In this document: positions 35,601 through 41,037 of the stretch, one piece after another
How the letters are laid out: the number at the start of each line of letters is the position of its first letter
Position numbering within the stretch: position 1 is the first letter of the stretch
IMG/VR virus record: IMGVR_UViG_2684623059_000003
Coordinates: 1 to 41,037 of that record
From: a virus
Lineage: Duplodnaviria > Heunggongvirae > Uroviricota > Caudoviricetes
Direction: 5' to 3' (one strand)
Length of the DNA stretch: 41,037 nucleotides
Program-made: the position numbers

Positions 35601-38600
35601 TCTGGCGCGCGTTGCTGGTTAGCCAGAAACACTGACTGATGAGGCTGACGATGGAATTTAAAGATTTACCGTCTGATGTACAGAAAACAGCAGCTCATAC
35701 ATTGCATTCTGTGCTGCGAGAAATCGGGAAAGATATTGCAAGCGAGCCAGCAAAAGATCTGGCCCGGAAAATCAAGACCGCTTTCGTTGAGCTTTATAAT
35801 GTTGGCACTGACTCTGAAACTGTCGAGACCAAGACCGTAAGTTCACCAATATTCTCACTTGAGCCAGGCGTATTAGCAGGTGAAATATGCACCGAGATTT
35901 CCAGCGAACTGCTTCCGGTAATACGAGAAGCAATTTGCCGTCGCGGTTTGGATGGAAGTTACGATCATGACGTCCTGCAAGTTCTCAGGACAATGGTGAC
36001 TTCACTGGGGATTTGATCCCTGCGTCCTCTAACCTTTTGATATAGCGGTCCTCCAAGAAGCGGTAAATTTTGTCGAAATCATCTTTCCCCTCTGATTTAT
36101 TCAGAGGATTACAGGACCCGTAAGTAGCGGCATACATTTCAACCGTTTTATCAAAAATATAAGAGACAAATTCTTCTTTAGTCATATAGATTTCCTTCTT
36201 GGTTATTCGGGATAAGAAGGATACCACCTCGCCTGACGTGGTTAAAAGCAGGCACACAACACGAAAGCGCACGGCGAAGTTCGTCTCACTGTACGGTGTC
36301 GTTAAATTTAATTCGACCGTGCGCTTCCGGTTGTGGCAACCCGCGAAATGGCGCGGCGGTAAGTATGGCGGGGTTATTCCTTCCCCGTTGAGGACACCGG
36401 GTTGTCAGGTTGACCATACGCTTAAGTGACAACCCCGCTGCAACGCCCTCTGTTATCAATTTTCTGGTGACGTTTGGCGGTATCAGTTTTACTCCGTGAC
36501 TGCTCTGCCGCCCTTTTTAAAGTGAATTTTGTGATGCGGTGAATGCGGCTAAGCGCACGCGGAACAGTTAAAACCAAAAACAGTGTTATGGGTGGATTCT
36601 CTGTATCCGGCGTTAATTGTTAACTGGTTAACGTCACCTGGAGGCACCAGGCACCGCATCACAAAATTCATTGTTGAGGACGCGATAATGGAAACGTTAT
36701 TACCAAACGTTAATACGTCTGAAGGTTGTTTTGAAATTGGTGTCAGAATCAGTAACTCTGCATTTACTGAAGATGCCATTAACAAGAGAAAACACGAACG
36801 GGAGTTATTAAATAAAATATGCATTCTTTCAATGCTGGCACGTTTACGCCCGATGCAAAAAGGATGCTGGCAATGAATACAGCAATTGCTCTCACTCTGA
36901 TAGTTTTTCTTAATACGGGCGAGCCTGTTGACCTGGTTATTGACATTTACGGTTCAATGAAAGAATGCACGGCTGCCGCAGCGGAACAGAAAACTCCCGG
37001 TAACTGTTATCCGGTCGATAAAGTTATTCATATGGACAATAACGAAATCCCGGCAGGACTTAAAACAGCACCGTAATTAATATCCGGTTTCATTTTTATA
37101 TGCCAGCAATGGCAGGGATTTGTTCACCCTTAAATCTGTAATGAGGTTAAAACAAAATGAGTAAAGTCTTTATTTGCGCCGCCATTCCGGACGAACAGGC
37201 AACAGCAGAAGGCGCTAAACCTGTGGCCACTGCCATTGAAGCAGGCGACGAACGCCGGGCAAGAGCCAAATTTAGCTGGTTATTTCTGGAACAATACCCG
37301 GAAGCTCAGGACTGTGCTTATAAATTTCTTGTCTGCGAGGATAAACCCGGCATGGCCCGCCCTGCTCTCGATTCCTGGGATTCCGAATATATGCAGGAAA
37401 ACCGCTGGAATGAGGAGTCGGCTTCCTTTGTTCCGGTCGACCCTGAACCGGATACAGAAACTGTTAACTTTAATCAGTTATCTGAAGACAAGCGGGCTGC
37501 TGTCCTTGTCAGATTCGGTACACATGAAAACATCACCGTGGATATGGTCATCAATGCAAGCGGGCTTCTCGGCGATGACGAGATGACGACTTTTGATGGA
37601 CACCTCACTGAAGCAATTATCAGGACTAAAGAAATTAACGCCATGTATCCTGAGCGTCAGACTGAGTACATCAACGACGCCAGATGTGATTTAAAACCAA
37701 CAGCCAAATGGCCCGACGTTCAGGCGTATTTTCTCGAACGTAAAAAACGCATGGAAAAGGAGCGCAAAGAAGGTGGAGCATATAATTCCGTCGTCGATCT
37801 TGCCCGCGCCAGAGTCAACCGGCAAGGCACTGAAAACTCTGCAGGAAAAACTGGCTCCGTAACTGCTGTCATTCGTCGCGCATACAGGCAGACATGGAAA
37901 ACACTGGATGAAGAACTGGCCTACGCTCTCTGGCCTGGTGATGTGGATGCCGGAAACATTGACGGCAGCATCCATCGCTGGGCAAAAAATGAAGTTATCG
38001 ACAACGACCGCGAAGACTGGAAGCGTATCTCGGCATCAATGCGCAAACAGCCTGATGCCCTTCGCTACGACCGCCAGACTATTTTTGGCCTTGTCCGTGA
38101 ACGTCCGATCGACATTCACAAAGACCCTGTGGCACTGAACAAATACATTACTGAATACCTGACGACAAAAGGCGTGTTTGAAGATGAAGAAACGGATCAG
38201 AGTCCTGCTGATGTTCTCCGGTCGTCAGCAACACAAACTGATGCAGTGGAAACAGAAGTATCTGGCACCCAAAAAAATGAAAGCGCACTGGAAGCTGAAC
38301 CATCTGTAGAGCGTGAAGGACCGTTCTACTTCCTCTTTACCGATAAGGACGGCGAAAAATACGGTCGCGCAAACAAACTGTCTGGTCTGAATAAGGCGCT
38401 GGCTGCCGGGGCTACTGAAGTCACCAAAGAAGAATACGTCGCCCGAAAAAATGGCACATACACAGGCTTACCGCAAAATACCAATGCCGCACAAAACTCT
38501 GAACAACCAGAGCCGGTAAAAGTTAACACGGTCGAAACAAATAAAAAAATGGAGACAGAAAATCTGCCTGATGCCGACAAAGTGCTTACTGCATCACGTG

Positions 38601-41037
38601 GTGAATTTGTTGAAGGAATTAGCGACCCGAATGATCCGAAGTGGGTTGAGGGGATCCAGACTCGCGATTCTGTGTACCAGAATCAGCAAGAAATGGAACA
38701 GAACGACCAGAAAGCGGAACAAAACAGCCCGGATGCGCAACAAAACGGGCCAGAAGTGCAACAGTCAGAGCCAACAGCACAACAGGAGACTGAAAAAAGC
38801 TGCAATACTTGCGGCCGGGCTGGCGGTGGAAAATGTCCGGACTGCGGGCCTGTTATGGGTAACACAACATATCAGGAAACATTCGATGAAGAAAATCTGG
38901 CTGAAAAAGATTCGGAGAAAATGGAAAGCACTGCGCATTCTCGTAAGGAGAGCGCTGGTGACGCTCAGCATGGCAATAGCAGTGATGAAACTGGCGAGAC
39001 GGCAAATCCCCTAATTCCGGTGAACGGTCATCATAAATACATATCCACCAGCAACAGAATGTGGACTCATATGATGATCGACCTGGAAACCATGGGAAAA
39101 AATCCTGATGCTGCAGTTATCTCAATAGGTGCAATATTTTTCGATCCGCAAACCGGAGATATTGGGCCAGAATTCAGTAAGACCATCGATCTGGATACTG
39201 CTGGCGGTGTCATTGACAGGGACACCGTTAAGTGGTGGCTGAAGCAATCGCGCGAAGCGCAGTCTGCCATTCTGGCTGATGAAATCCCGTTAGATGATGC
39301 ACTGTTGCAATTACGGGAATTTATCGACGAAAACTCTGGTGAGTTTTTTGTTCAGGTCTGGGGCAACGGAACCAGTTTCGACAACGTAATTTTACGCCGT
39401 TCATACGAACGACAGGGAATCCCCTGCCCGTGGCACTACTGCAATGATCGCGATGTTCGCACGATCGTTGAACTGGGAGGAGCCATGGACTTCGATGCCA
39501 GAACGGCTATTCCATTCGAAGGCGAGCGCCACAATGCACTTGATGACGCCCGTTACCAGGCAAAATACGTTTCAGCTATCTGGCAAAAACTGCTCCCAAG
39601 TCAGGCTGATTTTTAATGTTCAACCCCGGTTGTCGTCCACCAGCTATAGTGGCGGCGACCATGATTAGCGAACAACGCTCATGGCAAGACTTATTCTGCT
39701 CACTGAGTGGGCAAAAGAGGAATTCAGTGAACCGGTCCCTACTCCGGGTACATTAAGTAAATACGCTAAAGCCGGAATGATATTTCCCCTCCCCAAAAAA
39801 GTTGGAAGACACTGGCGAGTGGATCCACGGGCTCGTTTTGTCGGAATGGTAAGCAAGCCTGAGGTGATCGCCACAGATCACCCGGCTTTAAAGAGGATAC
39901 TGGAAGATGGCTCGCCCTCGAAAATATAAAACCGATGTTCCGGGGTTATCTCCGTATTTTGACAAAAGAAATAACAAAGTTTACTGGCGGTACAGGCATC
40001 CCATCACAGGCAAAAATCACGGACTCGGCAGTATTGACCAGAAACTGGCGGAAACCATTGCAGCAGAAGCAAACAGCCGCCTTGCCAGACAACAAATGGA
40101 ACAAATGTTCAGTCTGCAGGAAAAAATTATTAGTGATACCGGCGGTTCATCAACCGTTTCAATTTTTCTGAATAGTTACAGAAAAATTCAACAGGAAAGA
40201 TATGAAAACGGAGAGATCAAACTCAACACGCTAAAACAGAAAGCGGCCCCTCTCAGAGTGTTTGATGAACGTTTTGGAGCCAGGCAATTAGATGCCATAA
40301 CCGTAAAAGATATTGTATCGGTGTTGGAAGAATACAAAGCAAGAGGACATAACAGAATGGGACAAATTTTCAGGAAAGTACTGATCGATGTTTTCCGGGA
40401 AGCTCAACAAACAGGCGATGTCCCGCCAGGGTTTAATCCGGCAGAATCGGCAAAAAAACCACAGGTACGGGTATCAAGGCAACGACTGACCTTTGATGAG
40501 TGGATGATGATTTATAACGCAGCGGAAAAAGAGGGTTACTTTTTACAGCGTGGCATGTTGCTTGCGCTGATGACAGGGCAGCGTCTTTCGGATATTAGCA
40601 AAATGCAGTTTTCGGATATCCGGGATGGCTATCTTCATGTTGAACAGCAAAAAACGGGAGCCCGAATTGCTATCCCTCTGGCTCTGCGTTGCGATAAATT
40701 AAATCTTACCCTGGATGATGTGGTGTCATCCTGTCGCGATTGCGTTCTTAGTCCGTGGTTATTGCACCACCATCACGCGAAAGGGACAGCTAAGCGCGGC
40801 GGAATGGTTAAACCAGCAACGTTAACTGTTGCATTTAAAAAAGCCCGGGATTCTGTAGATTACAACTGGTGTGCCAATGGTACCCCACCCTCTTTCCATG
40901 AGCAGAGATCTTTATCAGAACGATTGTTCAGAGAACAGGGAATTGACACCAAAACTTTGCTGGGCCATTCGAATCAAAAAATGACCGATATTTACAACGA
41001 CGCACGCGGTAAGGAGTGGAAAAAACTGGTCGTTTGA

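Follow-up and report, generated by a model that had tools for sequence, protein, structure and literature searches.

The window considered here is the whole 41,037-nucleotide stretch of the IMG/VR virus record IMGVR_UViG_2684623059_000003 (Caudoviricetes), and the subject is the ydfE-type exonuclease gene near its right-hand end. The open reading frame (ORF) begins with an ATG at position 37157, which is preceded at about 10 nt by a GAGG Shine-Dalgarno sequence, and encodes 819 amino acids (Table 1). The protein matches PHROG 2082 ('exonuclease') with residues 1-819 of 823 aligned (E=0), and 819-aa proteins that are 100% identical to it are found in Escherichia albertii under the names 'exonuclease' or '3'-5' exoribonuclease'. 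A preliminary description made from the sequence alone had reported an intact ORF at this place; since the PHROG match is full-length and identical proteins exist, we regard it as a genuine gene rather than a chance reading frame. The identity of the E. albertii proteins also leads us to assign the window to an E. albertii prophage; it is lambdoid and of the Qin/PPompW type. The best E. coli DNA match for positions 34800-41037 reaches an identity of only 90%.

The same description had stated that the Qin prophage of K-12 carries a disrupted remnant of the gene, and this is correct: ydfE (b1577) is an annotated pseudogene overlapped by IS2E, and its first 256 codons show 66% identity to aa 1-256 of the window protein. 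Both YdfE_N (PF27430) and YdfE_C (PF27432) are found on the 100%-identical proteins P0001-P0004 in the precomputed Pfam assignments, and the gene is collinear with K-12 ydfE, being placed after dicB-ydfD. We read the 819-aa gene as the intact counterpart of the pseudogene. The two occupy the same operon slot, whereas the K-12 copy, cut by IS2E, lacks everything past about aa 256 including the nuclease, and the window copy is complete. The novelty that the preliminary description had implied is not supported, since PHROG 2082 and the Pfam families YdfE_N and YdfE_C already cover the gene and it is very common: 2,245 of 5,426 complete E. coli genomes (41%) carry at least 80% of it, in a maximum of 8 places per genome, and all of these copies are annotated as exonuclease. 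As an object, then, the gene changes little. It does offer a clean intact reference for a gene that was always out of reach of K-12 genetics, the K-12 copy being broken.

Table 1. Positions of the ydfE-type gene, its parts and other features of the window
Feature	Position	Strand	Basis
ydfE-type exonuclease gene, whole (819 aa + stop)	37157..39616	+	ORF, PHROG 2082, identical proteins, ribosome-binding site
YdfE_N (PF27430), aa 1-205, predicted alpha/beta unit + helical unit	37157..37771	+	precomputed Pfam, AlphaFold2
Predicted helical middle unit, aa 245-344	37889..38188	+	AlphaFold2 (pLDDT about 90), BLASTP to RecE, phmmer
Predicted beta-hairpin/helix mini-domain, aa 385-437	38309..38467	+	AlphaFold2 (pLDDT 80-87), conserved columns E385...K431
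Mosaic segment in common with Rac recE, aa 469-632	38561..39052	+	codon-wise nucleotide identity, partial ExoVIII match
Putative zinc ribbon CxxC-x7-CxxC, aa 549-563	38801..38845	+	Cys conservation
Predicted DEDDh 3'-5' exonuclease domain (Rv2179c-like/DexA-like), aa 637-809	39065..39583	+	PF16473, catalytic pentad
DicA-like repressor	34836..35294	+	ORF
YdfA- and YdfC-like ORFs	between DicA-like repressor and DicF	+	ORFs
DicF small RNA, same operon, upstream of the exonuclease gene	36462..36513	+	Rfam RF00039, 76.7 bits against a gathering score of 48
dicB + ydfD homologues, just 5' of the exonuclease gene	36688..37076 (approximate start; within ORFs 36583..36876 and 36819..37076)	+	translations; equivalents in FUJ80154, K-12 and Tritos
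xis	39681..39929	+	Pfam Exc
lambda-type integrase	39907..41037	+	Pfam Arm-DNA-bind_1, Phage_integrase
DUF1627 protein, between DnaC-like and Ren-like genes	31593..32354	-	PF07789, E=2e-95
NleG type III effector gene	1..627	+	PF06416, E=1e-41 to 1e-45 (range of the three NleG genes)
NleG type III effector gene	1911..2594	-	PF06416, as above
NleG type III effector gene	2616..3347	-	PF06416, as above

The C-terminal DEDD-type 3'-5' exonuclease fold that had been proposed was recovered by the domain search, in which PF16473 covers aa 637-809 and all 177 positions of the model are matched (E=1.2e-65; 221 bits, the cutoff being 27). The sole PDB sequence match of the domain, searched up to E<=10, is T4 DexA (exonuclease A, 8kel/8ken; E=6e-8). 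The DexA residues D7, E9, D119, H186 and D191 align to D642, E644, D742, H792 and D797 of the window protein, at an identity of 28%, and at least 112 of the 114 close homologues of full length keep the pentad; judged from these alignments it is complete and under purifying conservation. The domain is therefore predicted to be a metal-dependent DEDDh 3'-5' exonuclease of the T4 DexA/Rv2179c family. T4 DexA is a stand-alone protein of 227 aa from a virulent phage and has extra loops (83 residues separate D7 from D90, and 72 their equivalents in the window protein), whereas the window protein has an N-terminal extension of 630 aa. Rv2179c of Mycobacterium tuberculosis, the founder of PF16473, is a stand-alone bacterial exoribonuclease, whereas the window protein is fused. 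The literature on Rv2179c yielded nothing about phage homologues.

The non-catalytic front part was modelled with AlphaFold2 for aa 1-460 from an alignment of 86 sequences. The model has three confident folded units, i.e. aa 1-205, 245-344 and 385-437, with predicted disordered linkers between them. The first unit, YdfE_N, is unrelated to PF06630, the N-terminal domain of RecE. The middle unit is remotely common to RecE (approximately aa 278-340) and to all family members, and a phmmer search with it matched both RecE_N-type and YdfE_N-type proteins. The mini-domain (GPFYF..G.K.GRANKL...) is nearly invariant across the YdfE_N family, including proteins with a third type of head; no counterpart was seen in the alignment with K-12 RecE, where the region is poorly aligned and gap-rich.

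Judged by its position, the exonuclease gene is the final gene of a repressor-controlled early-left operon and stands directly before xis-int, with xis beginning 64 nt past the exonuclease stop codon. The gene order of E. coli FUJ80154, where the prophage adjoins ompW, matches that of the window. The order is also kept in K-12 Qin and in the phages Tritos, HannyBb and vB_EcoS-689R5, and again in phage Evi, but there with Kil where DicB stands. A promoter and terminator scan around the gene gave counts at the level of shuffled sequence and no terminator above background; it is silent on an internal promoter. In Shigella flexneri (locus L085, 5200-7359) the ydfE-type gene is in fragments, with YdfE_N, the middle part, the zinc ribbon and the DEDD domain on different ORFs. 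Since the gene is broken both here and, by IS2, in K-12, it decays repeatedly in resident prophages.

The relationship to RecE is that of a mosaic. The preliminary description had placed a RecE-like region at the N terminus; the RecE-related sequence is indeed present, but it is central, i.e. BLASTP aligns window aa 262-620 to aa 278-591 of K-12 RecE, and the true N terminus is YdfE_N. Compared codon by codon, window aa 469-632 and recE codons 451-606 show 63-84% nucleotide identity, whereas elsewhere the value falls to approximately 35-45%, the level expected for unrelated sequence. It is conspicuous that this segment of 164 aa stops exactly where the two unlike nuclease heads start. Within it lie the motif ISDPNDPKWV (aa 488-497, 38618-38647) and the Gln/Glu-rich linker with a CxxC...CxxC motif that the preliminary description had recognised: aa 498-548 are 49% Q/E/N, and the cysteines C549, C552, C560 and C563 are kept in 113-114 of 114 close homologues. 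The four-Cys motif is also found in K-12 RecE (aa 517). Of the 69 long representative clusters of the family, 68 lack it and a single one has it; the putative ribbon is a clade-specific insert and no family-wide feature.

In other respects the two proteins are different. Pfam finds PF06630 (N-terminal) and PF12684 (the PD-(D/E)XK head) in K-12 RecE and neither of them in the window protein, and the NCBIfam model ExoVIII (NF007259) reaches 248.6 bits where its cutoff demands 1269, matching only with model positions 445-603 (window aa 452-621). By these profile matches the window protein falls outside the RecE/exodeoxyribonuclease VIII equivalog. RecE of the Rac prophage occupies the same early-left operon slot before xis-int (...kilR-ydaE-racC-recE-recT-...-xis-int) and shares the central non-catalytic region and the zinc-ribbon segment; it differs in its PF06630 N terminus, its 5'-3' PD-(D/E)XK head and the recT gene next to it, as opposed to YdfE_N, a 3'-5' DEDD head and no annealase. 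The central non-catalytic segment has no known function in RecE itself (PMC11611040). In this sense the window protein is a natural experiment, in which the scaffold that improves full-length RecE in linear-linear recombination carries a nuclease of opposite polarity, and a comparison of RecE and YdfE could reveal what the scaffold does.

The distribution of the DEDD head was followed by scanning its alignment against one genome per species, which gave 80 loci with three architectures. The YdfE_N-fused form occurs in Escherichia only and in pieces in Shigella, and the RecE_N-fused form in approximately 20 other enterobacterial species; most other genera have a stand-alone DEDD protein of about 190-240 aa. 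Whichever of the three architectures it has, the DEDD gene often stands directly before xis-int. This position marks it as an early gene of temperate phages at these loci and favours a phage lytic function over a host defence gene. Some of the loci come from assemblies labelled as unrelated phyla, i.e. metagenome-assembled genomes of Veillonella parvula (L011), a member of the Geobacteraceae (L031) and a member of the Actinomycetes (L045), together with Streptomyces (L086) and Chryseobacterium (L088). Their heads are 55-89% identical to that of the window protein, and L011 has DicB upstream; most likely these are mis-binned or contaminating contigs.

The absence of an adjacent RecT/Bet-like annealase, which the preliminary description had noted, is confirmed: xis lies directly downstream, and no member of the RecT, Bet or Erf families was found among the early genes of the window (Q, RusA, DUF968/HNH, Ren-like, DUF1627, DnaC-like, O-like and CII-like). 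The complete phage Tritos has no annotated annealase either, and phmmer found no RecT, Bet, lambda Exo, Gam or RecE head within 7 kb in the 80 loci. In the 126 upstream ORFs of 25 fused-form loci Pfam detected no annealase, only repressors, DicB, DUF1482 (YdfD), DUF1391 (YdfA), YdaS and DUF6932. The absence of an adjacent annealase thus holds for fused forms generally, and the earlier suggestion that this is not a classical exonuclease-annealase pair can be extended to the 25 loci, where such a pair is excluded. We note that 14 of the 126 ORFs, co-directional with the fused genes, encode Rrf2-family regulators (L014-L064), which are unusual as repressors in the immunity region of a lambdoid phage.

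These data bear on the idea that the window protein is a RecE-like recombination exonuclease whose annealase is encoded elsewhere, i.e. one half of a classical two-component recombinase. The RecE central segment, the recE map position and the name exonuclease VIII used by some databases would suit it. The protein lacks the PF12684 head, the RecE N-terminal domain and a passing ExoVIII score, its DEDD head has a polarity opposite to that of RecE, and no RecT, Bet, Erf, Rad52 or Sak4 was found in the window, in Tritos or upstream in the 25 fused-form loci. On family membership the idea is already contradicted, and we consider it very improbable.

The stand-alone forms have a different neighbourhood. 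Among their 150 upstream ORFs Pfam found DUF2303 (18), RdgC (5), SSB (3), AAA_24 (3), ERF (2) and Rad52_Rad22 (1), i.e. they sit in DNA-recombination modules with ERF, Rad52, Sak4-like AAA_24, SSB, RdgC and DUF2303. This ties the DEDD head to DNA rather than RNA metabolism. DUF2303 (YfdQ-like, about 275 aa) is recurrent 1-3 kb upstream of the stand-alone DEDD genes (L022-L078) and possibly belongs to phage recombination modules as a so far uncharacterised component. A replacement of DUF2303 by the fused N-terminal module was considered and rejected, as hhalign gave a probability of 0.1%, i.e. no detectable homology.

The preliminary description had suggested host DNA degradation, anti-defence or recombination as possible roles, a choice that the present data can only narrow. 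What can be stated plainly is the architecture of the protein, its complete catalytic pentad under purifying conservation, its mosaic relationship to RecE, the operon position of the gene, and the lack of an annealase partner. From these we think that intact ydfE probably encodes a modular 3'-end exonuclease of DNA, built on a RecE-type scaffold and used in the lytic cycle as part of the early-left operon. The enzyme would be made on prophage induction or phage infection and not in the lysogen, as the gene order and the decay in cryptic prophages suggest; that K-12 and Shigella have broken copies in their cryptic prophages is what one expects for a lytic-cycle function. By homology to DexA it would trim DNA 3' ends. 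The gene sits at the map position that exo or recE has in other lambdoid phages, and the role of the enzyme would lie in phage DNA metabolism, i.e. the trimming of ends in replication or recombination, or the breakdown of host or competitor DNA. The front part in common with RecE would serve in targeting or assembly, as a scaffold to which evolution has attached nuclease heads that differ in polarity; the catalytic domain is joined to it through the disordered Q/E-rich linker with its putative four-Cys zinc ribbon.

Several points weigh against this proposal. No functional, biochemical or genetic study of ydfE or of any fused family member was found in the literature, and the timing of expression is deduced from gene order only. 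The sequence does not allow a choice between DNA and RNA as the substrate, and 'exoribonuclease' is the term used in the names given by Pfam and NCBI. Moreover, a 3'-5' nuclease leaves 5' overhangs, which to our knowledge are not a substrate of the known phage annealing pathways, so that the link to recombination is by association only.

The second of these points leads to a different proposal, namely that the protein is a 3'-5' exoribonuclease which trims or degrades transcripts, for instance those of the dicBF operon, or clears short oligoribonucleotides during phage growth. The family takes its Pfam name from the M. tuberculosis exoribonuclease Rv2179c, and databases use the name '3'-5' exoribonuclease'. 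The operon that holds the gene also yields DicF, and the RNA of the dicBF operon is heavily processed to give DicF. Nevertheless, the DNA exonuclease DexA is the one solved relative that sequence searches detect, stand-alone orthologues lie among DNA-recombination genes, and the head is carried on a RecE scaffold, at the very junction where RecE itself has a DNA exonuclease head. We therefore hold an RNA substrate of this kind to be improbable.

The relationship to DexA raises the question of defence, on which a study of 2025 is the experimental work nearest to the window protein. T4 DexA cleaves unmodified DNA or DNA with 5-hydroxymethylcytosine (5hmC) depending on its oligomeric state, and its residues W152 and D169 are required for 5hmC DNA; the E. 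coli homologue EcD (HAK9828821.1) cleaves T4 DNA, does not cleave unmodified dsDNA and protects cells from T4, an activity termed 'HREX' (PMC12153337). The window protein could accordingly be imagined to break down the 5hmC DNA of T-even phages selectively and to shield the lysogen or the induced cell, i.e. to act in defence or superinfection exclusion. Its domain is a DexA homologue, the gene is prophage-borne, and two proteins named as DexA homologues in Table S3 of that paper (VUF53858.1 of phage Evi and URC08875.1 of 689R5, 'phage' entries) are fused relatives of the window gene product of about 800 aa, so the family already counts as DexA-like. In the paper itself the DexA homologues of bacterial genomes are regarded as genes of host defence, and the word 'prophage' does not occur (PMC12153337). 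The presence of fused prophage proteins in its list puts the claim of a bacterial HREX defence in context.

The residues that matter for 5hmC recognition appear to be different in the window protein. The W152 position corresponds to C762, which is variable among the close homologues (C71/Y24/H16/S3) and Trp in more distant family members, and the D169 position corresponds to A781 (A111/V3), with D780 and D778 lying 1 and 3 residues away; the D169 position falls in a loop, and in an alignment of only 28% identity the equivalence of loop residues is uncertain. D90, the tetramer contact of DexA, is represented by D714 and kept in 112 of 114 homologues, whereas EcD has A78. EcD belongs to the same DexA-family DEDDh group with short-loop spacing (about 75 residues against 72), yet it is a stand-alone protein that has Ala at the D90 position and reportedly retains the 5hmC-recognising Trp and Asp; in the window protein D714 is retained, Cys and, with the uncertainty just named, Ala align to the two recognition residues, and the termini are unlike the 'MIDTET...TIPETYD' of EcD. 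An ORF with the EcD termini was found in 0 of the 80 DEDD loci, and a search of viral contigs for the EcD sequence, using the 3' end derived from the primer, gave no match. PADLOC-DB v2 returned no system-specific match and only a generic CRISPR-associated DEDDh model (E=5e-4). The location in a repressor-controlled operon and the loss of the gene in cryptic prophages also speak against such a role. Since the reported recognition residues appear not to be conserved, an HREX-type role against T4 is not supported by the sequence comparison, and selective defence of this type appears unlikely.

A nuclease made early in the lytic cycle might also destroy nucleic acids of host immunity, such as retron msDNA or signalling oligonucleotides. 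The early lytic operon position fits this circumstantially, as does the activity of oligoribonuclease-type DEDDh enzymes on short substrates (DexA-REXO2 comparison, PMC12153337 supplement). No tool gave a supporting observation, no co-variation with a defence system was seen and no literature was found, and we think that anti-defence is a highly unlikely function for the protein.

For the wider family of the front part, an exhaustive HMMER search with aa 1-460 among 1.84 billion proteins gave only 185 representative clusters. They form a mosaic family in which a YdfE_N- or RecE_N-type N terminus is joined to the middle unit and to a DEDD or PD-(D/E)XK head, and both N-terminal types were seen with both head types. 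Ten members with a third or other head were submitted to Pfam, which returned no family at all.

One such head is represented by P0132 and P0271-P0386 (e.g. L009, 6001-8340, Salmonella enterica), which have YdfE_N, YdfE_C and a C-terminal head of about 290 aa. They form a large enterobacterial family, found widely in Salmonella, Enterobacter, Klebsiella and other genera, and bear the name 'exodeoxyribonuclease VIII'. The head matched no Pfam family and gave no match in a profile search of PDB sequences; its AlphaFold2 model (pLDDT 80) consists of helices, long beta-hairpins and an invariant 'KKSLTDAIKKALSLLGF' helix, followed by a coiled coil. As nothing marks this head as a nuclease, the name looks like an annotation transfer from the N terminus. 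The invariant '...GEAQKKSLTDAIKKALSLLGFSADVWLGLYD...' suggested a Rad52/Erf annealase, an idea that was rejected because, apart from the empty PDB profile search, the best Foldseek match against the PDB had E=0.2 and no RAD52, Redβ or RecT was among the matches. P0125 (702 aa) carries yet another head on YdfE_N and the middle unit, with its C-terminal 260 aa matching only PHROG 26058 (phrog_26058, unknown function).

The mildly interesting point of the gene is thus evolutionary, i.e. heads of opposite polarity are interchangeable, and the fused DEDD form always stands without recombination partners. One may speculate that YdfE_N or RecE_N together with the middle unit is a platform for head swapping, with a 5'-3' PD-(D/E)XK head in RecE, a 3'-5' DEDD head in the window protein and at least one further head without a recognisable family. 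Because the fused DEDD form is always without SSB, RdgC, an annealase and DUF2303, the fused module may supply the partner function, such as DNA-end binding, recruitment of a host factor or strand annealing. The result would be a self-contained end-processing machine in a single polypeptide, with a polarity opposite to that of every characterised phage recombination exonuclease. We offer this extension with considerable doubt.

Other parts of the window contain features of a separate kind. A 187-aa ORF on the minus strand (30447..31010) lies in the same part of the window as the DUF1627 gene; its sole match is PHROG 660 (unknown function), and it has no Pfam family. At the opposite end, where the tail-fibre end of the prophage lies, positions 1..3347 form a block with a GC content of only 32-40%, which contains the three NleG genes together with two ORFs (728..1306 and 1258..1785) for which the Pfam scan gave no family. 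The NleG block is in keeping with a host of the attaching/effacing kind, such as E. albertii.

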